From the IMG/VR virus record IMGVR_UViG_2529293223_000013: a stretch of 34,720 nucleotides of DNA; one strand, given 5' to 3'. The stretch is from a virus (Duplodnaviria > Heunggongvirae > Uroviricota > Caudoviricetes). A model generated the notes under the pieces. The model did not search any database. It was given only the letters and a program-made list of their open reading frames with translations, and had not been told where the DNA came from. Shown here in pieces: positions 1-30,899 of the stretch; within the stretch, counting starts at the first letter, position 1; every line of letters begins with the position of its first letter. The position numbers and the translations under genes were made by a program.

Positions 1-219
1 TTACATCCACATAATTTGCTGCCCTGACGGCAACGGGTGCGGCCTTACGGCGTGGACTTCTCCCGGCTTCACGATGTATCGCTGTACCGACTCATAAGTG
101 ATGAACGTGGCGCTGCAATTCACGTTCTGGCACTGGTGATAACGCTCTTTTGTCGTGTCAGTGATATAGCGACTTGTACGCGCATGTGCGGCATGCTGGC
201 ATAAAGGACAATGAAACAT
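1..219 (-). CDS. ogr: Ogr late-gene transcriptional activator (C4 zinc finger)
   Basis: ORF 1..282 (-). From the internal Met (MFHCPLCQHAAHARTSRY...CQNVNC...) it is 72 aa, matching P2 Ogr with its Cys4 motif. The 21-codon upstream extension in the ORF track is probably not translated. Confidence 0.85.
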   Translation of the reverse strand: MFHCPLCQHAAHARTSRYITDTTKERYHQCQNVNCSATFITYESVQRYIVKPGEVHAVRPHPLPSGQQIMWM

Positions 220-300
220 CGCGAGCACCTCTTCCGGTTTTGTTGATGGTGCCATTTTAGTTAATTTATCCTTATAAAACAAATAGATAAAATAAAAACA

Positions 301-1464
301 TCACTCATCATCTTCTGTTTCGTACTCCACATCAGAAAGCCTGACCTCAAGCTCCAAGGACGTCGTGAAGCCGCTATTATTCAGAAAATGTGTCACCTTA
401 GTGATTGTCCAGTCCTGCTCGTCTATGACGCGCTTAAAGCCTGACACTTTAACCGGTGTTTCCGTGTAAATATCAGCACGACCGGTAGCCAGACTGATGG
501 AGAACTCCGCAACGCCCCGTTGCAGCTTATCCCACTTCGCCTGAGCGGCGCGCATGGCCTGCGCTTTCGTGGCATATACCGTGGTCAGGGCAAAAACGTT
601 GTCAGCCTCACCGGCCATGTATTCACCTTCGCGCGCTTCCGGTACTTTTGGCGCTTTCTTCTGCGTGACCGGTTTCGCTTTCGGGTGCTCCAGTGCGCGC
701 AGGTGTTTTTCTTCCTTTTTGCGTTTCAGTTTTACCTTCTGCTTTTGCGGCTTCGGGTCTTTGGTGTGTAACCACTTTGCCGTTACGCCGGTGTAAGCTC
801 CACGGTCAGCAATCGCAAAATGATGACGGTCGCCGTCGCTGCGGGTGATGGTAATCTGCGGGATTTTTTTACCGCTGGCCGTCACCCCCTGCCCCGCTTT
901 GAGAAACAGCAGTTTCCCCATTTTTACCGACACCTCGCCGCCGTTGCGTTCAGCAAGACGGGTCAGGAATTTCACATCGGACTCCTGCGACTGGTCGATG
1001 TGCGGGATTTTAATTCCGGCCAGTGACGGAGCGACACTGGCTTCCAGCCTGTTACGGGTGGCTATCGCCTCAACAATCGCACCGAGCGTGGTGTCATGCC
1101 AGGAGCCTTCCCGGCGGGAATTGAGCGTCCCGCGAAAATCTGCACTCCGGGCGCGGATGGTGACCACATCCGGTGCGCCCCGGTGTTCAACCTCATCAAC
1201 GGTAAATTTCCCTTTGCATACCAGGGCAAAACCTTTCCAGCCGATATACACCGTCAGGACAGCGCCACGAACCGGCAGCCCGACCTGCCCGTCGGCATCG
1301 TTCAGTTCAATATCAAGCTGGTCAGCCTCAAAGCCCCGGTTATCCGTCAGGGTCATGCTCATCAGACGGTCGCTGATATTGCCGGTAATATCCCTGCTGT
1401 CGAGCATCAGCATGTAATCCGGCGTCAGCGTACTGCCTGCATCAAATGTCAGCGCATCCAGCAT
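301..1464 (-). CDS. D: Tail protein D (P2 gpD)
   Basis: 387-aa ORF, the size of P2 gpD, located between ogr and U as in P2. Stop overlaps U start. Confidence 0.85.
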   Translation of the reverse strand: MLDALTFDAGSTLTPDYMLMLDSRDITGNISDRLMSMTLTDNRGFEADQLDIELNDADGQVGLPVRGAVLTVYIGWKGFALVCKGKFTVDEVEHRGAPDVVTIRARSADFRGTLNSRREGSWHDTTLGAIVEAIATRNRLEASVAPSLAGIKIPHIDQSQESDVKFLTRLAERNGGEVSVKMGKLLFLKAGQGVTASGKKIPQITITRSDGDRHHFAIADRGAYTGVTAKWLHTKDPKPQKQKVKLKRKKEEKHLRALEHPKAKPVTQKKAPKVPEAREGEYMAGEADNVFALTTVYATKAQAMRAAQAKWDKLQRGVAEFSISLATGRADIYTETPVKVSGFKRVIDEQDWTITKVTHFLNNSGFTTSLELEVRLSDVEYETEDDE

Positions 1465-1943
1465 TATTCCGCCCCCGTCATCCCCGTGAATCTGGTCGCC
1501 AGACTGCCAGCCTTACCGATGAGCGACTCCGCCTGTTTACCGATATCGCCATAAAGCGCGGCCAGTGATTCATCAACGCGGGTGAGTGACAGCGTAAAAT
1601 CAATTTTCCGGGGTGTGCCGTCTGCAAAGAAAATACTCCCTGTTTCACTCACCCTGCTGATGACATACATGCCGTAAATCATGCCTGTGCCATCCAGCAA
1701 CGGCCACGCCCGGCCTTCCTCTGCCATCAGCCTGAGCGTGGTCATCGTCAGCTTTCCGCCGGTCAGTTCAGGATAAAGCACACCGGCAAGCGTGATGTTT
1801 TCCTCACCCACACCGAGAAACTGGTAGGCATCCCGTTTACCGATACGGGAATTTGACGGCCAGCGATAATCTGATTCACGCTGCATGGTCTGGTGTGGCA
1901 GCGTCTGGCGCATAAAAACAAACATACCTAACGCGAGCATCAT
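1464..1943 (-). CDS. U: Tail protein U (P2 gpU)
   Basis: 159-aa ORF, P2 gpU size and position immediately after the tape measure gene. Confidence 0.85.
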   Translation of the reverse strand: MMLALGMFVFMRQTLPHQTMQRESDYRWPSNSRIGKRDAYQFLGVGEENITLAGVLYPELTGGKLTMTTLRLMAEEGRAWPLLDGTGMIYGMYVISRVSETGSIFFADGTPRKIDFTLSLTRVDESLAALYGDIGKQAESLIGKAGSLATRFTGMTGAE

Positions 1944-1957
1944 TTTTCGTCACCTCC

Positions 1958-4405
1958 TTAACCGTCATGCATCATGCTGGCACGGGCGCGCGCACGTTTA
2001 TCCCGCTCGTATTTTTCGAGCGCATCCTGTAACTGGCGGTCAAGCTGTGTCTCCGGCGCAGTACCGCCCGTCAGGCTGATGTGATATTCGTTTTTACTCT
2101 GGTCCACATAAGAGCGGCCAGCCGGTGCCGTGACCGGCTGATAAGCCTGATAGCCTGCATAAGAGCTGGTCGCCGGAATATAACCACCGGTGCCATACGT
2201 GGCGGCATTAGTCCTTGCGGCGGTCTGGTCAAGTGTGTCTGACTCTTTGTTGATAACACCGAGTTTTTCCAGTACCCAGTCAATACCACTGCGCAGTTTG
2301 TTGAACGCATTAAGCGGCAGCATCAACGCGTCAGCCAGTGCCTGCCCGAACATGACGCCCGTGTCACGGCAACGGTTCAGGGTGTCCTGTGTGGCTTTAA
2401 CCGGGGCAATCAGGTTTTTAAACCACTGCCACGCGGCCTGTAACTTTTCTCCCAGCCAGTCAAACACCGGCTTAAGTGGCGTGAACAGTTCCCCCACCGG
2501 CGCAAATGCCGCTTTCAGCCCTTCCACCACACCGCCAAAGAATGCGCTGACAGGCTCCCAGTATTTACGGATAAGCAACGCCCCGGCGACAATGGCGGCC
2601 ACCACAGCCACAACCGGCCAGCTAATCGCCCCGATGGCCGTCATAACGGCACTGCCAACCGTCGTGAAGATTGCCCCCATTGCGCCTGCTGCCGCGATGA
2701 TGGCATTGATGCCGGTGATAACCGGCCAGACTACAAGGCCAATGGCACCGATGATGCCAGTAAGCGCCAGCGCGCCACCGGCAATGATGCCGATGGTTGA
2801 CGCCAGTGATTTGTTTTTCTGGATCCAGCCGTCGAGTTTTAACACATACTTTGTGGCTGTCTGCGTGAGCTTACGCAGCGCGCCTTCCTGCTGGTCAAAC
2901 AGGTCAGTCCCCACCGCCTCATAAGCGGACTGAAACTCCTTAAAGTCACCGCCGAGGTTATCCTGCATGATTTTAACCAGCTCTTCCGTTTTACCGTCCG
3001 AGGCTTTCAGCGTGGCGGTCAGCTTATCCAGTTTTCCGCTTGCTGCCGCTGCCAGTAAAACGTTCGCTGATTTCAGGGCTTCCTCACCAAAAATGGTTTT
3101 AAGGTATTCCCCCTTCTGAGACGTTCCCAGCTTGTGTTTATCAAAGCTGGCCTGAATCTCTTTCAGAATGGTGAATAACGGACGCATATTTCCCTTTTTG
3201 TCCGAGGTTTTCACGCCAAGCTCTTTGAGTGCATCCCATGCTTTTCCAGTCGGTGCCTGTAATCGGGTGACAACGGCACTGCTACCCGTCCCCGCCATTG
3301 ACCCCCTGATGTTATTGTCATGCAGCACACCTGTCATGGCTGCTGCCTGCTCAAGACTTACACCTGCCGTCCTCGCAACCGGCCCGAGGTAAGTCAGTGC
3401 ATCACTGAGTCCCTGAAAATCAGCCGCCGACTTATTCATCGTTGCCGACAACACGTCGCCCACATGGCTGACATCATCATTTGACAGTTGAAAGGATGCC
3501 TTAGTCCCCAGCAACAGTTGCGCGTTTTCTTCCATCGACCGCTGATTCGCCAGTGCCATATTCAGCGTGACCGGCGTTGCCGCCTGAATAGCCGCAGCAT
3601 CTCCACCCGCTTTCGCAATGATAATCTGTGCACCGGCTGCATCATCTGCCGAGGCTGCGGTATTGTCGCCGAGCTGGCGCGCCTGCTTACGGAGTGCGGT
3701 CATTTCGGCGGAGTCTTTTGCCACACCGAGCACAGCCTGTAATTCTGAGTTTTTCTGCGCAAACTCATAACCGGGCATCAGCAGCTTAACTCCGGCCATC
3801 GTTCCCGCAGCTGCAATCCCCACACCGGCAGCGCCCACTGAGGCCATATTTCCGGCCAGTTCCTTTCCTGCCTGATAACGCTGTTTGACTGCGTTAAGTT
3901 TTACCTGTTGTGCACTGACACGCGCCAGCGCGTCACGCTGACGGTTAAGCTGTGCGGTGGTTTCACTGATACGGTTTTTCAGTCCCTGCTCATCATGTGC
4001 AAGATTGCGGGTATTAATTCCCACAACGGCCAGTTCCCGCTGCTGGCGTTTAACAGAATCCGTCAGGCGGTTATATTTCGCCTGTAAGTCCTCCGCCGCA
4101 CGCTTTGCGGATTCCAGCACTTTCGCCTGAGCACGGGTCGGACGTTCGGTGTTTTTAAACTGTGTGGCAAGGGCTTCGGCTTCCTGCCGAGCCTTTTCAA
4201 GTGCATGACCAGTCACGGCGAGCTGTGCACTGGTCTTGCGAAATCCCTCAATACGGGATGCCTGACCGTTCAGCTCGCGCAGTGATTTTTGTGTTTCCCG
4301 GATATCCCCCGACAGCGATTTGCTCGCTGTGCGGATGGATTTAAACGGGCGGGATGCCTGGTCAACAGCCCTGAGCAATACCTGTAATTTTACATTGTTA
4401 CTCAT
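1958..4405 (-). CDS. T: Tail tape measure protein (P2 gpT)
   Basis: 815-aa ORF, the P2 gpT length. Coiled-coil-rich N-terminal part (QLAV..., ELAVVG...) and Gly/Ala-rich hydrophobic middle are typical of tape measure proteins. Sits between E/E' and U. Confidence 0.9.
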   Translation of the reverse strand: MSNNVKLQVLLRAVDQASRPFKSIRTASKSLSGDIRETQKSLRELNGQASRIEGFRKTSAQLAVTGHALEKARQEAEALATQFKNTERPTRAQAKVLESAKRAAEDLQAKYNRLTDSVKRQQRELAVVGINTRNLAHDEQGLKNRISETTAQLNRQRDALARVSAQQVKLNAVKQRYQAGKELAGNMASVGAAGVGIAAAGTMAGVKLLMPGYEFAQKNSELQAVLGVAKDSAEMTALRKQARQLGDNTAASADDAAGAQIIIAKAGGDAAAIQAATPVTLNMALANQRSMEENAQLLLGTKASFQLSNDDVSHVGDVLSATMNKSAADFQGLSDALTYLGPVARTAGVSLEQAAAMTGVLHDNNIRGSMAGTGSSAVVTRLQAPTGKAWDALKELGVKTSDKKGNMRPLFTILKEIQASFDKHKLGTSQKGEYLKTIFGEEALKSANVLLAAAASGKLDKLTATLKASDGKTEELVKIMQDNLGGDFKEFQSAYEAVGTDLFDQQEGALRKLTQTATKYVLKLDGWIQKNKSLASTIGIIAGGALALTGIIGAIGLVVWPVITGINAIIAAAGAMGAIFTTVGSAVMTAIGAISWPVVAVVAAIVAGALLIRKYWEPVSAFFGGVVEGLKAAFAPVGELFTPLKPVFDWLGEKLQAAWQWFKNLIAPVKATQDTLNRCRDTGVMFGQALADALMLPLNAFNKLRSGIDWVLEKLGVINKESDTLDQTAARTNAATYGTGGYIPATSSYAGYQAYQPVTAPAGRSYVDQSKNEYHISLTGGTAPETQLDRQLQDALEKYERDKRARARASMMHDG

Positions 4406-5412: not shown

Positions 5413-6603
5413 TTAATTGCTGTTAACCGAAGTGACCAGATTTGCCAGGTATTTATCGGTGATACGCTGGCGCAGGGTCAGGTTTTCGAGAGGAGGCACC
5501 GGGGTATAGTCGTAGTCGATATACAGTTTTCCGGCCTTGAGGGTTTCCGCATCGTTGGATTCTTCGCTGAACCAGCAGGTCGCATCCACGATATAGCCGT
5601 TTGTTTTCAGCTCACGGAATTTGGCATTGATGCCGTCAACGATGTCGCGAATCAGCGTTGCGGTGATGGGCTTGTCCACCGCCCACATGTGCGCCTCAGC
5701 CATCGTATCGGCCAGCACCTGCGCGGTGCGGGTGTAGTTTTCAAAGAGGAAAAGCGGGTCATCAGAGCAGGTACGGTTACCCCAGAATCGGAAACCGTCA
5801 CGGCGAATCAGCGTAGTGACGCCTGACTCGTTAAGCAGGTCAGCATCGGTGCCGGACTCCTGCAAATCCCAGAATACGGACGCGCTGATGCCGGTAACAC
5901 CGTTCACCCCGACGTTGGACAGCGTTTTATGCCAGCCCTGCTCCTGGTCGATTTTAGCGCGCAGACCCAGCGCACGGGCGGTGGCATACGCGGTGGCGGT
6001 GGTACTGGCGACCGTATCCCATGCGAGGAAATCCGGCCAGATGACCATCAGCTCACGCTGGCTGAAATTCTGGCGGTAGGCTTTCACCTCGGAAACGGTC
6101 TTACAGCCCCATGCGCTGATATACCCGAAAGCGCGCAGCTTCTGACAGACTGATGCCAGTGCAACAGCCACCTCTTTGGTGTCCAGTCCCGGCACGCCGA
6201 GAATACGCGGTTTAACACCGGTTACCGACTCCGCCGCCAGCAGGGCTTTCAGTCCGGTGTACTGACCGTTTTCGTCGGTGGTGCCGATGATATTGGAAAC
6301 GGTCTGCGCGAGTTTCGTTTCCTCGTCGTCGCCGGTGCCGTCTTCCACACGCACGACAACGGTGACCGGTTTTGACTGGTCGGCGATGGCCTGCAACGAT
6401 GCCGCCAGCGTGCCTTTTTTACCGGCCTTTGCAATTGCGCTCTGCACATTGGTAATCAGCACCGGTTTATTGAGGGGGAAGGTTTCCGCATCCGCATCGC
6501 TGGCCGTGCAGACCATGCCGACAATGGCAGTGGATACGGTGGAAATGACGCGGGTGCCGTCGTTAATCTCCAGCACCTGCACGCCGTGATGATAGTCACT
6601 CAT
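5413..6603 (-). CDS. FI: Tail sheath protein (P2 gpFI)
   Basis: 396-aa ORF, P2 gpFI size, first gene of the FI-FII-E-T-U-D operon. Confidence 0.9.
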   Translation of the reverse strand: MSDYHHGVQVLEINDGTRVISTVSTAIVGMVCTASDADAETFPLNKPVLITNVQSAIAKAGKKGTLAASLQAIADQSKPVTVVVRVEDGTGDDEETKLAQTVSNIIGTTDENGQYTGLKALLAAESVTGVKPRILGVPGLDTKEVAVALASVCQKLRAFGYISAWGCKTVSEVKAYRQNFSQRELMVIWPDFLAWDTVASTTATAYATARALGLRAKIDQEQGWHKTLSNVGVNGVTGISASVFWDLQESGTDADLLNESGVTTLIRRDGFRFWGNRTCSDDPLFLFENYTRTAQVLADTMAEAHMWAVDKPITATLIRDIVDGINAKFRELKTNGYIVDATCWFSEESNDAETLKAGKLYIDYDYTPVPPLENLTLRQRITDKYLANLVTSVNSN

Positions 6604-6968
6604 CCGTTTAACTCCGTGGTTAATGGGTGCAACTATTTTCTGTTGGGCAGTGCATGAGACGCTATTTGACCTGGCTGGTCAGTGGATGAAACAACAGATA
6701 AAGAAAATGCGGGCAATTCGCCCGCATGTCCTGATTTGTACACACTCATTTTCCGACTGACAGTTTACATAGCCCAAACGCTATCAAATCTGACAGCCTG
6801 CTATGAGCGAAAAGCGTTAAATCTCACGATATCTGCTACCGGGAAAAATTTCGATTATCTTCGATGGGAACTTTGATAATGTAGTAAATGCCATTTTCAG
6901 CGATCACTTTTCAAGCGTGTGTAAATGATTAATGTTAAAAAATTGACTTCACTGAAATAAGGTTGCTA

Positions 6969-8121
6969 AATAGCTGCGCGGAATAGTAGATCACTTTGAG
7001 GGAACTTAGCCCGGATTGTGCGATCTGATCAATCGCCAAATCAAAACAAATCACCAACCGGACTGAGCAATGCCGATCATAGCACCAATTTCCCGTGACG
7101 AACGACGCCTGATGCAGAAAGCCATCCATAAAACACACGATAAAAATTATGCCCGCAGACTGACTGCCATGCTGATGCTGCACCGGGGCGACCGTGTCAG
7201 CGACGTTGCCAGAACGCTCTGCTGCGCCCGTTCCTCTGTTGGACGCTGGATTAACTGGTTCACGCAGTCGGGTGTTGAGGGACTGAAATCATTACCTGCC
7301 GGGCGTGCCCGTCGCTGGCCGTTTGAGCATATCTGCACACTGTTACGTGAGCTGGTAAAACATTCTCCCGGCGACTTTGGCTACCAGCGTTCACGCTGGA
7401 GTACAGAACTGCTGGCAATAAAAATCAATGAGATAACCGGTTGCCAGTTAAATGCCGGAACCGTTCGCCGCTGGTTGCCGTCTGCGGGGATTGTGTGGCG
7501 AAGGGCTGCGCCAACTCTGCGTATCCGTGACCCGCATAAAGATGAAAAGATGGCAGCAATCCATAAAGCACTGGACGAATGCAGCGCAGAGCATCCGGTC
7601 TTTTATGAAGATGAAGTGGATATCCATCTTCATCCCAAAATCGGTGCGGACTGGCAACTGCGCGGACAGCAAAAACGGGTGGTCACGCCGGGACAGAATG
7701 AAAAATATTATCTGGCCGGAGCGCTGCACAGCGGGACAGGTAAAGTCAGCTATGTGGGCGGCAACAGCAAAAGTTCGGCGCTGTTCATCAGCCTGCTGAA
7801 GCGGCTTAAAGCGACATACCGTCGGGCGAAAACCATCACGCTGATCGTGGACAACTACATTATCCACAAAAGCCGGGAAACACAGAGCTGGCTGAAGGAG
7901 AACCCGAAGTTCAGGGTCATTTATCAGCCGGTTTACTCGCCATGGGTGAATCATGTTGAACGGCTATGGCAGGCACTTCACGACACAATAACGCGTAATC
8001 ATCAGTGCCGCTCAATGTGGCAACTGTTGAAAAAAGTTCGCCATTTTATGGAAACCGTCAGCCCATTCCCCGGAGGCAAACATGGACTGGCAAAAGTGTA
8101 GCGGTATTAAGCGCAGCTATT
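6969..8121 (+). mobile_element. IS630-type insertion sequence (Tc1/mariner-like, IS630 family)
   Basis: Terminal inverted repeats AATAGCTGCGC (6969..6979) and GCGCAGCTATT (8111..8121), continuing as imperfect repeats of about 28 bp. Flanked by a TA dinucleotide on each side (6967..6968 and 8122..8123); removing the element restores CTAG. Length is exactly 1153 bp, which I recall as the IS630 length. Contains one 343-aa transposase ORF. Confidence 0.85.
7070..8101 (+). CDS. IS630-family transposase (DDE)
   Basis: 343-aa ORF inside the inverted repeats with an N-terminal HTH-like region, matching the IS630 transposase as I recall it from Shigella sonnei. Stop codon lies within the right inverted repeat. 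Confidence 0.85.
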   Translation: MPIIAPISRDERRLMQKAIHKTHDKNYARRLTAMLMLHRGDRVSDVARTLCCARSSVGRWINWFTQSGVEGLKSLPAGRARRWPFEHICTLLRELVKHSPGDFGYQRSRWSTELLAIKINEITGCQLNAGTVRRWLPSAGIVWRRAAPTLRIRDPHKDEKMAAIHKALDECSAEHPVFYEDEVDIHLHPKIGADWQLRGQQKRVVTPGQNEKYYLAGALHSGTGKVSYVGGNSKSSALFISLLKRLKATYRRAKTITLIVDNYIIHKSRETQSWLKENPKFRVIYQPVYSPWVNHVERLWQALHDTITRNHQCRSMWQLLKKVRHFMETVSPFPGGKHGLAKV

Positions 8122-8168
8122 TAGTATTTTTGGAGCAACCATTAATGTTTTTTATTTAAGGAATGTAA

Positions 8169-9587
8169 ATGACATACGCACTGATTGATAATTCAACTCT
8201 AACTGCAGTCCAAAGAATCGAGGGGAAAGTAAAAACAAGATCGAAGGACTCAGTAGATACAGACATAATAGCATTTGAGAACTATATACAGTCTATTTTG
8301 TTCTATGATCACGTTATCGCGGTTGATGATTATATTCCAGAGTACCGTGGGAGTAGGATTTCAAGTTTCAGAGAGATATTATTTCTTGATAAAGCACAAT
8401 ATGGGTTGGATGAAATTGAAAGTGAAGCAAAAAAAATATCTGATGCATTGAAACCTAAAATTCGTGGTGGAACATTTGTTAATGACGATTTTAAAAAACT
8501 AATTGAACTTCTTCAGACACATATCATATGTACATGGGACATTAGTTCAAGTGTTTATCATCTAACACTGAAGAACTTATCTGATGGAGGTAAGGAGTTT
8601 GAAAAATATGGTAACATTGCTGCTGCCATTTTTTCAGAACTGCGTGATGCTGCTGAGTCTGGTAATAGAACAAATGGCGATGTTGAACTTCTCGATCGAT
8701 TTGGCAACCCTATTCGCAAGGGGTACAAAGTTCCCGGAGCAAAATGGGGGGATGGCACATCTGCTGGTGAAGCATCAGATGCAATCAAAGCATTCGTGGC
8801 TTCGCTTGTATGGCTGGCTAATCGGGCAGTATTTTATTCTCTCACAGCTAAGTACCTTCAAGCAGATACTTTTTTATATCCATTACGTCAGGCGTATCAA
8901 CAGACATATTTAAGCCAAAACTGTCAGTATGGTTTTGACTATGCTAAACATATTGTAGAAAACTTTTCCACTTCGTTAAGTCATGATCTCATTGATATTC
9001 ATTCTGGTGGTAAAGCTGTAGCAACAGCAACTTCGCTTCCTTTATTTTCGGCATGGCTCGCAAAAGAAACTGGTGATCCAAGTTGTATTGTTGAAGCTGC
9101 TTATAACATAAGGGACAACAACGAATTTGTAAGGGCCCGTGAGAAAATGCGAGAAATAAAGCGCTTGTTTGATGAAAATGAATTGCCTCAAGCTAATAAG
9201 TCAGTAAGAGCATTGCTTACTGAAGTATCGAAAGAATCAGATTATATTCGAACTAAGTATGGGCTCAAGACTAGACAAGGTGTACCTGTAACTAAGCTTG
9301 TACATGTATACAATACTGTTGCGGCTATTAATTCCCTTCCGAAACTACCGACCTTTAATTTTAAAGTTAAAGTTCCTGATTTCTTATATGATCTTAAAAA
9401 ACCCAAGGGGTTTCGTGCTCTCTATCGAAATTTGACTAATGATCTTTCTACTGTGTGGTCGTTAGGAGAAGCTCGAGATATTCTTGGAAGTAAAGTTGTG
9501 ATAGATAATCATGCAAGAATTTACAGTCCGAAGCATGAAGAACCGCGTTTCAAAAACTCTCATTCCCCATATAAGAGCCCGATGTAG
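8169..9587 (+). CDS. Uncharacterised 472-aa cargo protein in the FI-G (Z/fun-equivalent) hotspot; function unknown
   Basis: Uninterrupted 472-codon ORF with a Shine-Dalgarno-like AAGGA 7-8 nt upstream of the ATG. Hand counts on two 60-nt stretches give roughly 30-38% G+C against about 53% in a sampled structural-gene stretch. Opposite strand to the flanking late genes. I do not recognise the sequence or any canonical motif. Confidence 0.6.
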   Translation: MTYALIDNSTLTAVQRIEGKVKTRSKDSVDTDIIAFENYIQSILFYDHVIAVDDYIPEYRGSRISSFREILFLDKAQYGLDEIESEAKKISDALKPKIRGGTFVNDDFKKLIELLQTHIICTWDISSSVYHLTLKNLSDGGKEFEKYGNIAAAIFSELRDAAESGNRTNGDVELLDRFGNPIRKGYKVPGAKWGDGTSAGEASDAIKAFVASLVWLANRAVFYSLTAKYLQADTFLYPLRQAYQQTYLSQNCQYGFDYAKHIVENFSTSLSHDLIDIHSGGKAVATATSLPLFSAWLAKETGDPSCIVEAAYNIRDNNEFVRAREKMREIKRLFDENELPQANKSVRALLTEVSKESDYIRTKYGLKTRQGVPVTKLVHVYNTVAAINSLPKLPTFNFKVKVPDFLYDLKKPKGFRALYRNLTNDLSTVWSLGEARDILGSKVVIDNHARIYSPKHEEPRFKNSHSPYKSPM

Positions 9588-9701
9588 CTTAAGAAAAAGA
9601 CACGCCCACCTTGTGCGTCTACTTCTGGCACAGAGCGGACTCTCAGATTAGGCTTTACTCTGTGCCATAGATATGTAAGCTCACACCAGAGCTCATACAA
9701 C

Positions 9702-10229
9702 TTATTGCGGCATTTCCGGCCATTCAGGATTTGCAGGATCCACACGACTGACCAGAACACTGTAGCGTTCCCATGCCTCCAGTCGACTGCGCTCCTCATC
9801 TGTTGCCATATTCAGCCTGACAGCGCGCTCCAGCGGCAAAATCACGGATTCAGCATCTGCAAGAAGTCTGGCTTTCCGATTTTCTGCCTGCTGCTGCAAT
9901 TCCTCTGCCGTATAAATTCGTTTAATCACTGTACAGTCCTTAAACATCCAGTTCCCTGAAATGTCCGCCCGTCGGTTAGCAGTAATATCCGGCACTTCAA
10001 CAACACTTAATCCATCCGGTCTGATAGCTGTCACATCCTTTTCCACATAGCGGATAATATTATCTTTGTCGTACGCTATTTTTATCGTGTCATCAGCAAA
10101 ATACTTTTGTTCTTCGTACCAGTTCTTACCATCTTCTGAAAAAAACCAGACAACATCAAAGTCCTTTGTCAATTGATATTGTTCAACCGTTTTTGGATTA
10201 CCTGCCGTTATATTTATCAAATGCTGCAT
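9702..10229 (-). CDS. G: Tail fibre assembly chaperone (P2 gpG)
   Basis: 175-aa ORF, P2 gpG size, immediately downstream of the tail fibre gene. Confidence 0.85.
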
Positions 10230-10232
10230 AAA

Positions 10233-11173
10233 TTATACCTGCGCCACGTTATACCAAGTCCCGTTAATGTATTTCTGCACCGGTCTGTAATATACGCCAC
10301 CAATGTTATCGGCAGAGTTTGAGCCGGTATCCTGAACAATAATGCCGGAATATACACACCCGGACGGTGCCTGATGTGTCCATGTCATACCATTGTTCGC
10401 AGGTTTGTATGTGGCAGCACCACCAAGCCGGATATCCCGGACATAGCGTGAATCAAAGTTGCCATAGTTAGATGGTGATACCTGCCCGTTAACAGCAAAA
10501 GTGATGCTGTTATCTGTATTTCTCTGACTGTAAAAATGCCAGCCTGCATCATCACCTAATTCAGCCACCACAGGACGACTTGAGTTTCCCCACAAATTGA
10601 ATGCGGCTTCCTTCGTGGATGTATTGCTGCTGCTGACCGTGAACTTTTTCCCGCTACCGGCACGTACTTTGGTACTTGAGACAATATCACCTGTAACACT
10701 CAGGCCATGCCCCATTGACACTCCGCCATTGGCGTTATTGATAGTCAGCGGTCTTAAGCCGTTCCATGTCCCAAATTTATCGCCAGAGGCCGTCAGCATT
10801 AAATATGTGCTGCCGCCATCATTCCTGATAAAGAATCCATAATTGCCATAAGCAATGCGCAGACCATTAGCACTGAGTGATGTAATTTCACCTCTTGAAC
10901 GGAGACCATAAGCGGAGCTGAGTGATAATTCTTCCTGAGCGTCATTGTTTCCTGTCGCCCAGCGAATTACCCCGCCCTGAACTGTTTCATGCCAGATAGT
11001 ATCTCCTTCTCCACCACGAAACTTTCTGAGATATTTTTTGCCGCCTCTGGTGCCTGAACATAAGGCCGTAGACATATAGGCATTCTGGCTTCCGCCATCC
11101 TGATTAATCGTTCCGGTCATTGAGTCGCCCTGACGATTCCAGTCACGACGCCAGCCGGGGGAGTAGCCGTCCC
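10233..11173 (-). pseudogene. H: Tail fibre protein H, C-terminal portion (gene interrupted by an IS element)
   Basis: Open frame continues from the IS boundary down to the stop at 10233 (ORF track 10233..11120). Gly/Ser/Asn-rich receptor-binding-like sequence. In frame with the N-terminal fragment once the 1304 bp of IS plus duplication is removed. Confidence 0.8.
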
Positions 11174-12467
11174 CTGAGGGATCCCCAGAAAATTTAGTAA
11201 ACCATTATCATATTGGTATACCGTTGCTGTAGAACTTTCAGCCCTGCGTCAAGTGACAGTGTGTTTAGTATGAGTGGAGAATGTCGAATCACATTCTCCG
11301 CCAGTTTTAATAACGAGATGACTCGCCTGTGCTTCACTGTATTTGCCTGATATTTATGATGTATCCCTTTGTTTTCCAGGCTGAAACCGCTTAACCACAT
11401 AATGATACTGGCTAATGTTGCGATCAGACTCAATACCGTGACCCGCCCGGATGAATGACTGGCACCAAACCGTAGTCCAAATCCCCAGCGAGGATTTTTT
11501 TCATCCCTGAAATTTTGCTCAATTTGCATTCTACGGCTGTATAATTTCATTACCTGTTTTGGCGAGAACTCAGTACTGTTTGTGAAAATAAACCATGGTG
11601 ATTTCCCGGCAGTACGAGCTTTAGCCGTCACCGATGGTCTGGTTGCTCTTTCCTTCGAGCGTTTAAATCTACGACCTTTAGGCTTACTTTTATAAAGATA
11701 AAAATGCCCTTCATGTTGTGCATTTTTATCTCGACCCAGCAGGCCTTCACCTAAATAAATTGCTGTCGTTGATGCTTTTGTGCCTGAGTCCGACACCTTT
11801 TCCCAGCCATTACCAACATTGTAATAATGATTGCCCAGTACCCGGCAAATATAGGTCCAGCCACGGGAGCGGAGCTGTTGGAACCATCGCCCCTGAAAAC
11901 CGGCATCTGTAATAACAATGACATCAGTCCCGGGGGAAAAGCACTCAGCAAGCGATTCCAGAAAACGCTCATGTACATCTGCATTCGCTGTCTGTGATGA
12001 TGGAACGACACAACTCATCAACGGTAAAGAACGCCCGTCACATGCCAGGCTTGCCCGCAAAAGCTGAAAACGAGAGGCATGATAAGCACTCCAGTCAATG
12101 AGTATCACAACACGAGACATTCCCCGCGTAATCTTTTGGGTAATTCGCTGAAAAATGGTGGAAACCTCATTTTGCAAATGTCGATTCCCCAACAGTCGAT
12201 CCACCCGCTTTATTTTGTTTTTAACTGATGCCGTACCGGTTAAATGACGCCCGATACTGGTAAGTGTGAGGGAAGCGCCATTTATTACAGCATTAGTTGC
12301 GTCAATCAGTGATTTTTGACGGTAAAGATGCAAAGGGGCCAGTATGTTGTTAAGGAAATTTTGGCATAATGAACGTGCAGGCATAGTGGTGATCTCCTTG
12401 AAATTGTTAGCACAATCAATTAGATCACATCTCACTATGCCTGTCTTGTTTTCTGGGGATTCCTCAG
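11174..12467 (-). mobile_element. IS4-family (IS10-like) insertion sequence inside tail fibre gene H
   Basis: Terminal inverted repeats CTGAGGGATCCCCAGAAAA (11174..) and TTTTCTGGGGATTCCTCAG (..12467) with one mismatch. Flanked by direct repeats of the target (tagccgtccc at 11164..11173 and 12468..12477, i.e. a 9-10 bp duplication). Encodes a transposase with IS10-like motifs. Element ends are uncertain by 1 bp. Confidence 0.85.
11194..12384 (-). CDS. IS4-family DDE transposase (IS10-like)
   Basis: ORF 11194..12480 (-) with IKRVDRLLGNRHL and YSRRMQIEQNFRDEKNPRWGFGLRF motifs, close to IS10 transposase IKRIDRLLGNRHL and YSKRMQIEETFRDLK. The track ORF starts outside the IS end, so the true start is internal; I place it at the first in-element Met (12382..12384), giving about 396 aa. 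Start codon is uncertain. Confidence 0.75.
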   Translation of the reverse strand: MPARSLCQNFLNNILAPLHLYRQKSLIDATNAVINGASLTLTSIGRHLTGTASVKNKIKRVDRLLGNRHLQNEVSTIFQRITQKITRGMSRVVILIDWSAYHASRFQLLRASLACDGRSLPLMSCVVPSSQTANADVHERFLESLAECFSPGTDVIVITDAGFQGRWFQQLRSRGWTYICRVLGNHYYNVGNGWEKVSDSGTKASTTAIYLGEGLLGRDKNAQHEGHFYLYKSKPKGRRFKRSKERATRPSVTAKARTAGKSPWFIFTNSTEFSPKQVMKLYSRRMQIEQNFRDEKNPRWGFGLRFGASHSSGRVTVLSLIATLASIIMWLSGFSLENKGIHHKYQANTVKHRRVISLLKLAENVIRHSPLILNTLSLDAGLKVLQQRYTNMIMVY

Positions 12468-13855
12468 TAGCCGTCCCCATGATTTATGTAAGTGAATTGC
12501 GCGCTGGTTGTACCGCCACCGCTTGATGTTGTTGGCGTGGTCACTCGGATAGTGATTGCAGATTTAGTTCCCATGACCTCGACGACACAACCAGCCAGGT
12601 GGATATCACCACATCCGGTATCCGTAATGATTTTGTTATTTGCATATGACCAGGAGCCTTTGCACATCCAGTACGGATGATTAAATGCACCACGGGAATC
12701 CAGCCATTCAATAAACTGAGCGGTTGTCCAGTTTCCGGCTTCAGTGCTCAAAGCGCCGCTATAAGCACGACAGGCACCGATATTTTTCGTGAAGGTATCC
12801 TTTCCCGGAATATCCGCACCGTTCTGATCTTTCTGAAGACGTTTTTCAGCATTGTCATAGGCAGACTTCACTGCTTTTGGCGTTGCGGCCAGCGTTTCAG
12901 AATCGCTGTTGATGGCACTACTTAGCTGGACAAGACCTTTTCGCGCTGTGGTGGCATCCTGTGCAGTGTATTTCCCGTTAGCAAGGTCATACGCTGTCTT
13001 AACCGCCTTTGGTGTTGCCGCAAGCGTTTCAGAATCGCTGTTGGTGGCGCTACTGAGCTGGACAAGACCTTTTCGCGCTGTAGTGGCGTCCTGTGCAGTG
13101 TATTTCCCGTTAGCAAGGTCATACGCTGTCTTAACCGCCTTTGGCGTTGCCGCAAGCGTTTCAGACGTGCTGTTGGTGGCACTACTGAGCTGGACAAGAC
13201 CTTTTCGCGCTGTGGTAGCGTCCTGTGCGGTATATTTCCCGTTAGCAAGGTCATAGGCGGCCTTTACCGCTTTCGGCGTTGCGGCCAGTGTTTCAGACGT
13301 GCTGTTGGTCGCACTGCTTAACTGAGTAAAACCTTTTGCGGTCAGCGAGGCGTCCGGGTGACGTCGTGACTGTTCGTGCTCTGCAATTTTGTCATCAACG
13401 TAATCCTGTGTCGCCATCACCGTTGTGGTGTCAATGGTCAGCTCCACCGAGGCCACACTGCTGACGATGATGACCATGCGACAGGTCTGCGAACGCCCTG
13501 AGCCTTCGGCAAGAGCTGGCTTATAACTTTCGGCCATGTTCGCCACGGCAATTAACGTTCCCGCATCATCGTACAGGCCAAGCTCACGCATCCAGAAACC
13601 GCCCACCTCCGGCGGAATAACCAGCTCTGCGATAATATAATTACTGTTTCGTTTGTCCTGGCTGATTTTGTTCAGCGTATGTCGCCAGACTTCGTGGATA
13701 AGCCCGGTCTGTCCGGCATCCGGGACAGGCAATTTACCACCGCCATCCCCGACGGCCATCGTGGTAATGTTGACCTTCCGCCCTCCCGGTGCGGTTGCCG
13801 CTGCCAGCTTTGCTGCACCGGCAGTGGTGATAACGGTTCTGAATTTTGTGCTCAT
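12468..13855 (-). pseudogene. H: Tail fibre protein H, N-terminal portion (gene interrupted by an IS element)
   Basis: N-terminus MSTKFRTVITTAGAAKLAAATAPGGRKVNITTMAVGDGGGKLPVP... is the conserved P2-type H N-terminal domain, followed by four copies of a 44-aa repeat. The track ORF reads on into the IS until a chance stop at 12464. Confidence 0.85.
12860..13340. repeat. About 3.6 tandem copies of a 132-bp coding repeat within tail fibre gene H
   Basis: The CGTTTCAG landmark recurs at 12900, 13032, 13164 and 13296 (period 132 bp) with near-identical units. Encodes repeated KGLVQLSSATNSTSETLAATPKAVKTAYDLANGKYTAQDATTAR. Generates mirror ORFs on both strands in the ORF track. Confidence 0.9.
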
Positions 13856-22721: not shown

Positions 22722-24494
22722 ATGACCATCACCACAGACACCACTCTTTTACACGACCCGCGTCGTCAGGCGGCGCTGCTGTACTGGCAGGGGTTTTCCG
22801 TGCCGCAGATTGCCGCCATGTTGCAGATGAAACGCCCGACGGTGCAGAGCTGGAAACAGCGCGACGGCTGGGACAGCGTTGCCCCCATCAGCCGTGTCGA
22901 AATGAGTCTGGAAGCGCGGCTGACCCAGCTCATCATCAAACCGCAGAAAACCGGCGGTGACTTCAAGGAAATTGACCTGCTGGGACGCCAGATTGAACGA
23001 CTGGCACGGGTCAACCGCTACAGCCAGACCGGCAACGAGGCAGACCTTAATCCGAACGTCGCTAACCGCAACAAAGGCGGGCGGCGCAAACCGAAAAAGA
23101 ATTTTTTCAGTGACGAGGCCATCGAAAAGCTGGAGCAGATTTTCTTTGAGCAGTCTTTCGACTATCAGTTGCACTGGTATCGTGCCGGGCTTGAGCACCG
23201 CATCCGCGATATCCTGAAATCCCGCCAGATTGGCGCGACGTTTTATTTTTCCCGCGAGGCGCTGCTGCGCGCCCTGAAAACCGGCCATAACCAGATTTTT
23301 CTGTCGGCCAGTAAAACGCAGGCGTATGTGTTCCGCGAATACATCATCGCCTTTGCCCGGCTGGTTGACGTTGACCTGACCGGTGACCCGATTGTCCTGG
23401 GCAATAACGGCGCAAAACTGATTTTTCTCGGCACCAACTCCAACACCACACAGAGCCATAACGGCGACCTGTACGTCGATGAGATTTTCTGGATCCCGAA
23501 TTTTCAGGTACTGCGTAAGGTGGCATCAGGTATGGCCTCACAGAGTCACCTGCGCTCGACCTATTTCTCCACCCCGTCCACGCTGGCGCACGACGCCTAC
23601 CCGTTCTGGTCAGGTGAACTGTTCAACCGGGGACGCGCCAGCGCCGCCGAACGCGTGGAAATCGACGTCAGTCATAACGCCCTTGCCGGAGGTCTTCTCT
23701 GTGCGGACGGCCAGTGGCGGCAGATTGTCACCATTGAGGACGCCCTGAAAGGCGGCTGCACATTGTTCGACATTGAGCAGCTCAAACGCGAAAACAGCGC
23801 CGACGATTTTAAAAACCTGTTCATGTGTGAATTTGTTGACGACAAGGCATCGGTGTTCCCGTTCGAGGAGCTGCAACGCTGCATGGTCGACACGCTGGAA
23901 GAATGGGAAGACTATGCACCGTTTGCCGCCAATCCGTTCGGCTCCCGCCCGGTATGGATTGGTTACGACCCGTCACACCGTGGCGACAGCGCCGGATGCG
24001 TGGTGCTGGCACCGCCGGTGGTGGCCGGTGGCAAATTCAGAATACTTGAGCGTCACCAGTGGAAAGGCATGGACTTTGCCACCCAGGCGGAATCCATCCG
24101 CAAACTCACCGAAAAATACAACGTCGAATACATCGGTATTGATGCCACCGGCCTCGGTGTCGGCGTGTTCCAGCTCGTACGCTCGTTCTATCCCGCCGCG
24201 CGCGATATCCGCTACACACCGGAAATGAAAACCGCAATGGTGCTCAAGGCAAAAGACGTTATCCGTCGTGGCTGTCTGGAATATGACGTCAGCGCCACCG
24301 ACATCACCAGCTCGTTTATGGCTATCCGCAAGACCATGACCAGCAGCGGACGCAGCGCCACCTATGAGGCCAGCCGCAGCGAGGAAGCCAGCCATGCCGA
24401 CCTCGCCTGGGCGACCATGCACGCCCTGTTAAATGAGCCACTCACCGCCGGTATCAGCACCCCGCTGACATCCACCATTCTGGAGTTTTACTGA
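22722..24494 (+). CDS. P: Terminase large (ATPase) subunit (P2 gpP)
   Basis: From MTITTDTTLLHDPRRQAALLYWQGFSVPQIAAMLQMKRPTVQSW... the ORF is 590 aa, matching P2 gpP. Divergent from O as in P2. Confidence 0.9.
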   Translation: MTITTDTTLLHDPRRQAALLYWQGFSVPQIAAMLQMKRPTVQSWKQRDGWDSVAPISRVEMSLEARLTQLIIKPQKTGGDFKEIDLLGRQIERLARVNRYSQTGNEADLNPNVANRNKGGRRKPKKNFFSDEAIEKLEQIFFEQSFDYQLHWYRAGLEHRIRDILKSRQIGATFYFSREALLRALKTGHNQIFLSASKTQAYVFREYIIAFARLVDVDLTGDPIVLGNNGAKLIFLGTNSNTTQSHNGDLYVDEIFWIPNFQVLRKVASGMASQSHLRSTYFSTPSTLAHDAYPFWSGELFNRGRASAAERVEIDVSHNALAGGLLCADGQWRQIVTIEDALKGGCTLFDIEQLKRENSADDFKNLFMCEFVDDKASVFPFEELQRCMVDTLEEWEDYAPFAANPFGSRPVWIGYDPSHRGDSAGCVVLAPPVVAGGKFRILERHQWKGMDFATQAESIRKLTEKYNVEYIGIDATGLGVGVFQLVRSFYPAARDIRYTPEMKTAMVLKAKDVIRRGCLEYDVSATDITSSFMAIRKTMTSSGRSATYEASRSEEASHADLAWATMHALLNEPLTAGISTPLTSTILEFY

Positions 24495-25528
24495 TGAGAA
24501 AGAAAAAAGGGAAAACACCGCAGCCAGCGGTGAAAACAATCACCGCCAGCGCCCCGAAAATGGAGGCATTCACCTTTGGCGAGCCGGTGCCGGTACTCGA
24601 CCGCCGTGACATTCTGGATTATGTCGAGTGCATCAGTAACGGCAGATGGTATGAGCCACCGGTCAGCTTTACCGGTCTGGCAAAAAGCCTGCGTGCTGCC
24701 GTGCATCACAGCTCACCGATTTACGTCAAACGCAATATTCTGGCTTCAACGTTTATTCCGCACCCGTGGCTTTCCCAGCAGGATTTCAGCCGCTTTGTGC
24801 TGGATTTTCTGGTGTTCGGTAATGCGTTTCTGGAAAAGCGCTACAGCACCACCGGTAAGGTCATCAGACTGGAAACCTCACCGGCAAAATATACCCGCCG
24901 TGGCGTGGAGGAGGATGTTTACTGGTGGGTGCCGTCCTTCAACGAGCCGACAGCCTTCGCGCCCGGCTCCGTGTTTCACCTGCTGGAGCCGGATATTAAT
25001 CAGGAGTTGTACGGCCTGCCGGAATATCTCAGCGCCCTTAATTCTGCCTGGCTGAATGAGTCGGCCACGCTGTTCCGCCGAAAGTATTACGAAAATGGCG
25101 CTCATGCCGGATACATCATGTACGTCACCGATGCCGTGCAGGATCGCAACGATATCGAAATGCTTCGCGAAAACATGGTTAAGTCGAAAGGCCGCAACAA
25201 CTTTAAAAATCTGTTTCTCTATGCCCCGCAGGGGAAAGCTGACGGCATTAAAATTATCCCGCTCAGTGAAGTGGCAACGAAGGACGATTTTTTTAATATC
25301 AAAAAAGCCAGCGCCGCTGACCTGCTGGACGCGCACCGTATCCCCTTTCAGTTGATGGGCGGCAAGCCGGAGAACGTCGGGTCACTGGGAGATATTGAGA
25401 AAGTGGCAAAGGTCTTTGTCCGCAATGAGCTTATCCCGTTACAGGACAGGATCCGCGAGATAAACGGCTGGCTCGGTCAGGAGGTCATCCGCTTTAAAAA
25501 CTACTCACTGGACACTGACAACGGCTGA
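24494..25528 (+). CDS. Q: Portal protein (P2 gpQ)
   Basis: 344-aa ORF, P2 gpQ size, last gene before cos. Confidence 0.9.
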   Translation: MRKKKGKTPQPAVKTITASAPKMEAFTFGEPVPVLDRRDILDYVECISNGRWYEPPVSFTGLAKSLRAAVHHSSPIYVKRNILASTFIPHPWLSQQDFSRFVLDFLVFGNAFLEKRYSTTGKVIRLETSPAKYTRRGVEEDVYWWVPSFNEPTAFAPGSVFHLLEPDINQELYGLPEYLSALNSAWLNESATLFRRKYYENGAHAGYIMYVTDAVQDRNDIEMLRENMVKSKGRNNFKNLFLYAPQGKADGIKIIPLSEVATKDDFFNIKKASAADLLDAHRIPFQLMGGKPENVGSLGDIEKVAKVFVRNELIPLQDRIREINGWLGQEVIRFKNYSLDTDNG

Positions 25529-25912: not shown

Positions 25913-28118
25913 ATGAAATTAAAACTCAAAAACGTAACAAGCTATCATAAAGAATATTTTACTGAGTTAGATTTATCCAAAAAAATAAACATATTGTATG
26001 GACAAAATGGTTGTGGAAAATCTACCATATCAAATTATTTTTACAATCCTAAAGACACCGCCTATAAGGAATGTGTATGCGAACCCATCGATAATTATCG
26101 AACCCTAGTCTACAACTCAAAATATATAGAAGATAATTTTTATAATGCAAAAGAGCAAAAAGGTATATTTACCCTCAGTCAAAAAAATGCAGAAATTGAA
26201 AAAATACTATCTGAAAAAGAAGAGCTAAACAAATCACTAGCACATCAGCATAAAGAAAAAAAGAATTTATCGAAAAACTCCATGAAGCGAAAAACAAAAA
26301 AGAGCAAGAATGCATAAATTCCATATGGAATAAGACCAAAGACATAAGAAGTTCAGAATTAAAACAATTAATGAAAGGTCAAATAGGAAGCAAAGCCACT
26401 TTCTATTACCATCTAAAAAAGTATACTCCACAAACTGATATTGATATAAAATCATTAATACAATCTTATAGCAAACTTCTCGAGTTTAAAGGAAAAGAAA
26501 TACCTCTGATAACTCCTTATAAAGGATATGTTTTATCTGAAGAAACTCAAAAAACATTATCCACACCAATTATTGACTCTAGCAACAGCTATTTATCTGA
26601 AGCAATAAAAGAGCTACAAAATATTGATTGGATTAAACAAGGCAAAGAGCTATATTTAAATGGAGAAATTTGTCCATTTTGCCAAAGGGACACAATAGAT
26701 GATAATTTTATTAAAGCCATTGAATCTATCTTTGATGAAACATACTCAAGAAAAGTAGATCAAATACAACAAATAAAACTATCTTATGATAATGCCATTA
26801 AAAATCATCATGAAGAAATAAAGAGTAACATTTTATCATGTGAGGTGATAAACCAAGACGAAAAAGATAAAAGTCTTTCATATGTTAAGGCATTAGAAAC
26901 TATTGCAGAAAAAACATTAAACTATTGGATAATAAAATAGAGAATCCATCTATAAGCATTGTGCTGGAGTTTGAAAAGTCGATAGAGGAAAAACTATTAG
27001 AAGATATAGAACAATACAACAATAAAATTAACGAGTTCAATGACAAAGTAAAAAGATTTAATAATAGCGAAATAGATATTCGCGAAAAGATGTGGGCAGC
27101 AATCAGAGACTTATGTGGCGCGGAATTTGAAATACTATCAGACTGCGAAAGAAACTTTCAAGAAAAATATGAAAACGCTGCATCCTTCATGCAGGAAATA
27201 AAAAGAAAAGAAGAGATCAACACAAATGAAATCAATGAACTAAGAAATAAAACATCAAGTGTAGATGCAACAATAGATGCAATAAACTCACGACTTAAAT
27301 TTCTTGGCATCTCTGGTTTTAGCATTGATAAACACGCCGAACTCAAAGATAAGTATATAATATCCCGCGATGGAAACAATAGAAAACAAGATGTATATCG
27401 CTCATTAAGCGAAGGTGAAAAAACATTAATAACGTTTCTATATTTTTTAGAATGTTGCAAGGGTAAAACAAATGAAAATGATACTGATATGCGTGATAAA
27501 CTCATAGTCATAGATGATCCTATATCAAGTTTATCTCAAAACTATGTTTTCGACATAGCATCCATGATCCATCATGACATAATTGAAAAAGGCATTTCAT
27601 CAAAAATAATAATCCTCACCCATAATCTTTATTTCTTCCATGAGTTAATAAAACTCGCCTCTAAAAAAGGAATAAATTTTAAACGTGACTACTTTCTTGG
27701 CAGAATAAACAAAAATGAATTTAGCACCATTAGTGCTATAGATAAAAAAAGTGTGCAAAATGAATACCAATCCCTTTGGCAAGTATTAAAAGATGCAAAA
27801 GAGAAAAAAATCAACAAAATAATAATCCCCAATATTATGAGAAATATACTTGAGTATTACTTTGCATTTGTTCATAGAACTGACGCATTAGAGGCAAAGC
27901 TTACTGAATTAACAAATGATGAAAATAACAGCCATTTCCGTGCCTTTTACAGATATATAAACAGAGGCTCTCACTCCGACGCAATAAACATAACAGATAT
28001 GGGCGATATTGAACCTGAGAAATACTTAGAACTCTTGCACAAAATATTCAGAATGACTGGTGATGAGAAACATTACTTAACAATGATGGGTGAAGAAGAG
28101 GTAAATGTTACCGCTTAG
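25913..28118 (+). pseudogene. PrrC/RloC-like ABC-type ATPase with CxxC motif and C-terminal putative anticodon-nuclease domain; reading frame broken by two frameshifts
   Basis: Three consecutive ORFs (25913..26317, 26371..26940, 26925..28118) in frames 2, 1 and 0 form one gene of about 735 codons. It carries Walker A (GQNGCGKST), a coiled-coil region with CPFC, an ABC-signature-like LSEGEKTL, Walker B (LIVIDDPISS), an H-loop-like ILTHN, and a C-terminal R-x3-E...H arrangement (RNILE...H). A hand count on one 60-nt stretch gives about 22% G+C. RBS AGAGGG precedes the ATG. Frame changes fall in overlaps that contain A7 (26256..26262) and A6 (26909..26914) tracts. Confidence 0.6.
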
Positions 28119-30634: not shown

Positions 30635-30899
30635 ATGAGCCAAAAGCCTCTGAACAACGCTTGCTGAGTTGCTCAACCTGCGCGTTTAAATCAGCAAAAG
30701 ACTTTGCGCTTCCGGTCAGAATATCGTGATGCATCAGGCCGGAAACGAGCTGGCTTAATTTCGGGTAATAACCAACCACCGCCAGCCATTCCTGACCGGC
30801 GTTTTTACCGCTTTCCGCTCTCTTTTTCTCGTGGAGAATAAACTGAAAGCTGTCACTGGTAACGACATAACGTTCGCCAATTTCGATACGAATACTCAT
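30624..30899 (-). CDS. Hypothetical early protein (P2 orf83 position)
   Basis: 91-aa ORF between the TraR-like gene and A, at the position of the small early-operon orfs of P2. No function assigned. Confidence 0.55.
   Translation of the reverse strand: MSIRIEIGERYVVTSDSFQFILHEKKRAESGKNAGQEWLAVVGYYPKLSQLVSGLMHHDILTGSAKSFADLNAQVEQLSKRCSEAFGSYGR

Follow-up and report, generated by a model that had tools for sequence, protein, structure and literature searches.

What does a solitary gene do when it is placed, against the direction of its neighbours, among the late genes of a P2-like prophage? This question is raised by a window of 34,720 nucleotides (nt), the whole stretch of the IMG/VR virus record IMGVR_UViG_2529293223_000013. 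In this window, an open reading frame (ORF) of 472 codons at positions 8169-9587 is flanked by the tail sheath gene FI and the tail-fibre assembly gene G, both of which are antisense to it. The original prediction, made from the DNA letters alone, took this ORF for an unrecognised foreign cargo of the FI-G (Z/fun) slot and for a candidate single-gene defence or abortive-infection function. After the analysis described here, we are close to certain that the cargo gene is a real, selected and autonomous mobile gene. It is a hotspot-borne single-gene cargo, and judged by its context, a defence function is the reading with the best support, at about even odds.

The ORF was found exactly as claimed, intact at the FI-G position and on the strand opposite to the late genes (coordinates are collected in the table below). 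The surrounding backbone is that of a P2-like Peduovirus, with about 80% of the first 25 kb matching such phages at 95-97% identity. In three E. coli prophages that are free of the insertion sequence (IS) found upstream of the gene in this copy, the cargo gene is the sole annotated gene between "tail sheath" and "tail fiber assembly protein". The foreign base composition that had been estimated by hand is confirmed, the guanine plus cytosine (GC) content of the ORF being 0.379 (0.27 at third codon positions, GC3) versus 0.556 for the late-gene backbone and a GC3 of 0.70 for FI. A good ribosome-binding site had also been noted and is present as AAGGA, 6 nt before the ATG. Compared with homologues for which synonymous divergence (dS) is unsaturated, the gene has a ratio of nonsynonymous to synonymous substitutions (dN/dS) of 0.13-0.17, and all 15 copies compared have exactly 472 codons with zero indels. 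Because of this constraint, the absence of indels and the more than 280 homologues described next, the ORF is a real gene and not a chance reading frame.

A word-indexed search of 5.8 billion proteins returned 282 homologues, and the best 120 listed are mostly exactly 472 amino acids (aa) long, at 51-90% identity. The family is small: when 1.84 billion representatives (50% identity) were searched exhaustively with HMMER, 325 matched. The length of the family protein is nearly always 470-474 aa across phyla, and since no homologue is longer than about 485 aa among the 150 HMMER matches listed, there are no domain fusions among these. Hosts include Escherichia/Shigella, Pantoea, Serratia, Pectobacterium, Lonsdalea, Acinetobacter, Vibrio, Halomonas, Psychrobacter, Desulfotalea, Citrifermentans, Nitrospira, Cyanobium and Clostridium, and 14 IMG/VR viral contigs carry the gene as well. 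At 31 of 32 loci, the gene has a lower GC content than its flanks; at the remaining locus, a 2.5-kb contig with little flank, the two are about equal. Every source labels the protein "hypothetical", and the family is mentioned neither in the literature covered by full-text searches with accessions and motifs nor in the supplements of Rousset 2022, DefensePredictor, a metagenomic selection study and an integron-cassette screen.

A number of copies are damaged. The 90% cluster contains many Shigella sonnei and S. boydii entries, several of them truncated, and the window may therefore be of Shigella origin. A decayed copy with a frameshift and many stops was seen in the Pantoea symbiont of Euschistus servus (L019, 8001-9415), and the ORF is split at loci L020 and L021. 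Copies on Pseudomonas aeruginosa megaplasmids (L056, 6007-7008) are 5'-truncated to 333 aa and lie in an IS-rich resistance region.

The original prediction had described the gene as a stand-alone cargo of a P2-like prophage, and this is borne out by ORF clustering across 28 loci, in which only the cargo gene was shared and no partner or other neighbour recurred. To delimit the shared DNA, an IS-free E. coli prophage was compared by BLASTN with Lonsdalea, three viral contigs, a Serratia integrative and conjugative element (ICE) and the Pantoea symbiont. The shared DNA consists of the gene and short flanks, starting 195-215 bp upstream of the ATG and ending 10-50 bp past the stop codon. The upstream stretch with a TTGA(C/T)T element aligns between contexts, and this -35 element is kept in six of them. 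As homology is limited to the gene, about 200 bp on its 5' side and 10-50 bp on its 3' side, what moves is a module of about 1.65 kb that holds one cistron and brings along its own 5' region. In E. coli 89-3156 (NZ_CP027366), the IS-free module occupies 2379156-2380837. The 5' region was searched for tandem repeats, Rfam RNAs and convincing small ORFs in sense orientation, and none were detected. In distant homologues from Pectobacterium, Acinetobacter, Zobellella and Vibrio, the gene is intact and the upstream DNA is not shared, which argues against a hidden partner. The idea of such a partner was rejected, with no conserved neighbour and nothing partner-like in the 5' region.

At the right boundary of the module, a hairpin with a perfect 9-bp stem (GGCACAGAG...CTCTGTGCC) straddles the junction at 9626-9666. 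Folding gave -28.9 kcal/mol for a 96-nt stretch (z = -2.5). The hairpin is not a canonical terminator, because a uridine tract is lacking on either strand.

The gene is strongly linked to mobile elements. In Vibrio vulnificus and V. parahaemolyticus, where the homologues are 69% identical to the cargo protein, it forms a single-ORF cassette in a superintegron-like array of same-strand genes, bounded by attC-like repeats (CTAACAA...GTTATGT cores) 1581 bp apart, and the neighbouring cassettes measure about 460-500 bp. The Serratia ICE carries it as cargo between TraC and TraU, adjoining an RmrA-type gene, and in Pantoea it stands beside an Old-family nuclease gene (E 1e-65) on a relaxase-bearing element. 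A Pectobacterium island with the gene also contains a HEPN protein, CcdAB and TacA, and in one strain Lamassu LmuA/LmuB; in Halomonas, the gene is directly followed by ParDE and CopG. IS transposases are found on both flanks in Tenderia, a TrwC fragment adjoins the gene in Citrifermentans, and on a Clostridium kluyveri plasmid it adjoins a serine recombinase and helix-turn-helix repressors. On viral contigs, the neighbours are of the lambda-type terminase or Sf6-type tail needle kind. The link to known defence genes that emerges from these loci is suggestive and anecdotal.

One of the Vibrio loci has a further feature. Upstream of the array, the V. vulnificus contig L036 encodes a Phage_GPA protein (P2 gpA-like), an Mrr_cat/zinc-ribbon protein and a protein kinase (129-4392), which suggests that a P2/P4-type element abuts the integron array.

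The FI-G slot itself had been presented as a hotspot for variable cargo. This agrees with the four different single genes that occupy it in four other P2-like phages, two of which match PADLOC candidate-defence models, and with two papers that describe the FI-G region as a diversity or defence hotspot. The tests reported in Rousset 2022 were mainly on the other P2 hotspot, gpA-gpQ. Integron cassettes are known defence reservoirs according to the literature. Of the reading as a defence-hotspot cargo, the part that concerns a mobile, foreign, single gene in a variable slot therefore stands, whereas the defence role is based on context and the hint at a HEPN nuclease, discussed below, fails. Taking position, orientation, mode of mobility and some of the neighbours together, we consider the case for a conflict or defence role to be about evenly balanced.

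Several observations weigh against a defence role. A defence or abortive-infection function is suggested through guilt by association, and no homology ties the family to defence. In Acinetobacter and Nitrospira, copies are found among ordinary genes. The 118 immediate neighbours at 24 loci are mostly unrelated genes, and within the best 25 of 98 matched families, which do not amount to a measured enrichment, the only recurrent defence-type neighbours are two C5-methylases and an RmrA-type model, with two members each. A presumed association with Wadjet in Desulfotalea was dropped, as the Mks neighbours match no PADLOC Wadjet model. The gene is also rare: among 5426 complete E. coli genomes, 7 contain it, each time in the chromosome, and searches of 50,697 deposited phage genomes at the DNA level and with tblastn found the family in none.

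The cargo protein is soluble, with a mass of 53 kDa, an isoelectric point of 8.6 and no hydrophobic segment of transmembrane strength. It had been called unrecognised, and the profile searches are in accordance with this. Searches of Pfam, NCBIfam and PADLOC yielded zero matches at E values up to 10 (PADLOC-DB v2.0.0, with 5027 models, covers systems described up to 2023), and the only family match is PHROG 13435 (E 9.6e-294, residues 1-472 against profile positions 1-472), which is annotated as function unknown. When 70 divergent members were scanned singly against Pfam and PADLOC, only scattered noise was obtained, the PADLOC part of it being four single-member matches with E values of at least 0.012. 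Sequence searches of the PDB (one with the single sequence, two with profiles) gave only coiled-coil noise on a helical hairpin at residues 318-364. The 472-aa sequence contains zero matches to the Walker A motif (G/AxxxxGK[ST]), as had been stated.

Structure prediction and a Foldseek search, both proposed along with the original prediction, resulted in a confident model and no significant fold match. A first AlphaFold model, built from 63 sequences, had a mean predicted local distance difference test (pLDDT) of 73.7 and a predicted template modelling score (pTM) of 0.84; a second one, built from 120 sequences down to about 20% identity, reached a pLDDT of 83.7 and a pTM of 0.87. Foldseek found zero matches to these models in the PDB and BFVD at E values of 0.001 or less. 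In the model, residues 1-165 form an alpha/beta domain with the order strand, two helices, strand, helix, strand, helix, strand, helix, beta-hairpin, long helix. A poorly conserved beta-rich stretch (166-203) is followed by a mainly helical part with a long helical hairpin (204-365) and a mixed C-terminal part (366-472), in which a strand at 469-471 is confidently placed. Conservation peaks in residues 1-60, then in 121-135, 211-240, 286-300 and 316-330. The positions with a weighted frequency of at least 0.85 are D7, R16, G19, D32, E37, L44, F45, D47, D53, D54, R63, F67, W123, S128, L132, W215, R219, Y223, L236, P238, R240, P291, F293, R324, L432 and G433. The C-terminus is exactly -PM in 90 of 120 members, usually with (W/F/Y)K(S/x) just before it.

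On this basis, a mechanism can be proposed. The unit is a one-gene mobile cargo module, in which the 472-codon gene is preceded by a control region of its own of about 200 bp and followed by a short 3' tail, and the protein would most likely act as a single-protein defence against phages (or other mobile elements) that is expressed from the lysogen, like P2 Fun(Z). Its Rossmann-like N-terminal domain (1-165) bears the conserved polar cluster D7, R16, D32, E37, D47, D53, D54 and R63. In the model, D7 follows strand 1, D53 and D54 follow strand 2, and D32 and E37 lie in the first half of the helix that enters strand 2. In Rossmann-like folds, positions of these kinds usually face one sheet edge. 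Because D7, D53/D54 and D32/E37 sit at such places, we propose that the cluster could be a catalytic pocket which binds a divalent metal or a phosphate and has a nucleotide or a nucleic acid as its substrate. The helical middle (204-365, with W215, R219, Y223, R240 and R324) and the docked, near-invariant -PM tail might then have regulatory or sensing roles.

An enzymatic mechanism of the N-terminal domain, for which the conservation pattern and the order of secondary-structure elements speak, must be regarded as doubtful. Weighing against it, the best Foldseek matches are generic Rossmann-like enzymes at E values of at least about 0.04 and template modelling (TM) scores of about 0.1-0.2. For the N-terminal motifs LIDNxTLT and VDDY, readings as PIN/FEN, HAD, GT-A or P-type-ATPase-like were considered and not adopted, as no profile or fold search supports them. 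The further-reaching idea that the protein stands at the head of a new single-protein antiviral family, with an unseen fold, an acidic metal pocket, regulation by the -PM tail and a module spread over at least five phyla, is tentative, and we rate its chances somewhat below even.

A gene of this kind could also serve lysogenic conversion or general fitness, apart from any phage defence. It might, for example, encode an enzyme for the modification of small molecules, nucleotides or envelope precursors, and mobile elements would then carry it for the advantage that the host gains in certain niches. Integron arrays, ICE cargo slots and the moron positions of prophages also hold non-defence genes, the cassettes next to the Vibrio homologues encode acetyltransferase, NUDIX, tautomerase and glyoxalase proteins, and some copies lie among housekeeping genes. 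The weak Foldseek matches, too, are Rossmann-like metabolic enzymes, nucleotidyltransferases and GT-A glycosyltransferases. However, these fold matches are insignificant (E at least 0.045, TM about 0.1-0.2), and the diverse hosts, which range from Enterobacteria to Cyanobium, Nitrospira and Clostridium, have no common metabolic neighbourhood. Moreover, the rarity of the gene, its patchiness within species and its repeated decay are more like those of conflict genes than of niche metabolism. A fitness gene is thus unlikely in our view.

Carriage by phages, an ICE, plasmids and integrons would likewise suit a factor that benefits the mobile element itself, for example by inhibiting host immunity or by excluding rival elements during transfer. 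In several genomes the gene has defence systems next to it, a location that is sometimes seen for anti-defence genes. Still, its antisense position to the late operon and its own upstream region are the pattern of lysogen-expressed genes, lone chromosomal insertions persist without a surrounding element, and 472 aa is large in comparison with known anti-defence proteins. We consider such a counter-defence or competition factor to be quite improbable.

The 5' region is conserved and exceeds the length of a minimal promoter. If the cargo protein were the toxic half of an addiction module, or of one resembling a toxin-antitoxin pair, this region could hide the antidote in the form of a micro-ORF or small RNA. 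That toxin-antitoxin genes are frequent neighbours and that copies decay readily would fit this idea. As described above, however, tandem repeats, an Rfam match and a conserved small sense-strand ORF are missing from this region, and the Pectobacterium, Acinetobacter, Zobellella and Vibrio homologues are intact without any shared upstream sequence. In addition, the ORF of this copy is intact although an IS has cut off most of the 5' region. An addiction module is therefore very improbable.

Two further explanations are hardly credible. A tail-fibre, chaperone or host-range accessory protein might be expected from the position beside G and H, and according to the literature the Z/fun slot also swaps tail-fibre and assembly genes, but the gene lies on the strand opposite to the late operon, none of the family-profile searches (Pfam, NCBIfam, PHROG) matched a tail or chaperone family, IS-free prophages have complete H and G in addition to the cargo gene, and the gene also occurs in integron cassettes, an ICE, plasmids and plain chromosome without nearby phage genes. 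A HEPN-type RNase had been hinted at because of a C-terminal R-x5-H; RIYSPKH is indeed present at residues 450-456, and Csm6 (CARF plus HEPN) was among the weak matches of both Foldseek searches. This hint did not hold, since R450 is found in only 23 of 120 and H456 in fewer than 8 of 120 homologues, a HEPN profile of Pfam or PADLOC was matched neither by the cargo protein nor by the 70 divergent members, the motif sits in an extended, partly beta C-terminal segment of the model and not in a helical bundle, and the Csm6 matches have probabilities of 0.03-0.07 and a TM of about 0.1. Membership in the HEPN superfamily was rejected, as the R-x4-6-H motif is not conserved; the alternative R460-x4-H465 has its histidine in only 56 of 120 members.

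Returning to the cargo module in the window, its 5' region has been interrupted by an IS that lies 46 bp upstream of the ATG and whose bounds were found by alignment with an IS-free prophage. Members of the IS630 family are about 1.15 kb long and have a TA target duplication, short terminal inverted repeats and a single transposase ORF. By its size, TA duplication, inverted repeats (AATAGCTGCGC/GCGCAGCTATT) and single ORF, we take the IS to be of this type. A single sigma-70-like match, TTGACT-18-TAGTAT with an upstream TG, precedes the gene in the IS-free prophage. This promoter assignment corresponds to a 9/12 match to the consensus, and it is weakened by the fact that the candidate -10 is not conserved in close homologues. 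Because the target of the IS was the TA of the -10 element, the -35 element is now 1.15 kb away from it, and the promoter scan found no promoter-like site on the + strand between 6850 and the ATG. The IS has thus split the putative promoter, a point that the original prediction did not make, and the gene copy in this prophage may be silent, poorly expressed or expressed by read-through from the transposase gene.

Table. Features at and around the cargo gene, in coordinates of the window.
Feature	Position	Strand	Remarks
P2 tail sheath gene FI	5413-6603	-	left border of hotspot
Distal 5' region of module	6800-6968	+	candidate -35 TTGACT at 6943-6948; based on homology and promoter scan
IS, presumably IS630-type	6969-8121	+	1153 bp; 11-bp terminal inverted repeats; TA duplication 6967-6968 and 8122-8123
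Transposase ORF of this IS, 343 aa	7070-8101	+	same orientation as cargo gene
Proximal 5' region, still attached to gene	8122-8168	+	candidate -10 TAGTAT at 8122-8127, its TA being the IS target
Shine-Dalgarno-like AAGGA	8158-8162	+	6 nt before ATG; kept as (A/G)AGG(A/G) in homologues from other hosts
Cargo ORF	8169-9587	+	ATG start; 472 codons plus stop; intact; PHROG 13435 family
3' tail of mobile module	9588-9636	+	homology with other contexts ends 10-50 bp after stop
P2 tail-fibre assembly gene G	9702-10229	-	right border of hotspot

The prophage is defective, with the tail-fibre gene H split and the cargo of the other hotspot broken. H, a single 772-aa gene in IS-free relatives, is divided by a second IS, presumably of the IS4 type, into two flanking ORFs (10233-11120 and 12464-13855). 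As the 428-aa transposase ORF of this IS (11194-12480, - strand) interrupts H, the prophage is without an intact tail fibre. In the N-terminal part of the tail fibre (about 12900-13300, within the - strand ORF 12464-13855), a stretch of about 46 aa, LSSATNS(T/D)SETLAATPKAVK.AYDLANGKYTAQDATTARKGLVQ, is repeated in nearly identical form, with three to four copies visible in the translation. In the other hotspot, between gpQ (24494-25528) and gpA (28346-30676), one ORF of 189 aa and, next to it, one of 397 aa (together 26371-28118, + strand) match the consecutive positions 156-338 (E 5.6e-43) and 341-724 (E 2.2e-149) of the 727 positions of the PADLOC candidate model PDC-S06, and the 397-aa ORF also matches PrrC (E 6.5e-15). 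From these matches, the gpQ-gpA cargo appears to be a PrrC-like defence gene that has lost its 5' part and suffered a frameshift.

If the defence reading of the FI-G cargo is true, the gene would represent a compact immune module of 1.65 kb, with one gene and no known domain, that is easy to transplant and to study. A single unit circulates among prophage hotspots, integron cassettes and conjugative elements in hosts as different as Escherichia, Vibrio, Cyanobium and Clostridium. Both the constant length of the protein and its near-invariant Pro-Met ending are uncommon features, and they suggest a molecular machine under tight constraint. Should the gene not be defensive, it would still be the representative of a widespread orphan family that is directly testable.

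Among known systems, the validated Vibrio defence cassettes have the same format as the Vibrio homologues of the cargo gene, namely a single ORF with attC-type repeats. Darracq 2025, Kieffer 2025 and Getz 2025 reportedly deal with defence genes of this kind, which Vibrio carries in the cassettes of chromosomal integrons. With 1.58 kb, the cassette of the homologue is about three times as large as its neighbours. In the Vibrio 90% cluster, which has 19 members, the entries that carry a name include none with a VP1817 (V. parahaemolyticus) or RIMD designation.

Within the FI-G slot, PDC-S51 (DUF3800) of phage fiAA91-ss and the SMEK-domain protein of vB_EcoM-12474II are likewise encoded by single + strand genes, with products of 360-368 aa. 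These two cargos match PADLOC and Pfam models, whereas the protein studied here matches neither database. Surveys have paid this slot far less attention than the old/tin slot of P2, and it is an under-explored reservoir. A parallel in the slot is offered by its prototype occupant, Fun(Z) of P2 itself (NP_046777.1, 528 aa), whose annotation is that of a lysogenic-conversion gene blocking the growth of T5. It shares with the cargo gene the FI-G position, the antisense orientation, the status of a single non-essential gene and a length of about 470-530 codons. The two proteins are unrelated in sequence (best BLASTP E value 0.12, hhalign probability 0.9%), so that homology to Fun(Z) was rejected and the cargo protein is best described as its positional analogue.

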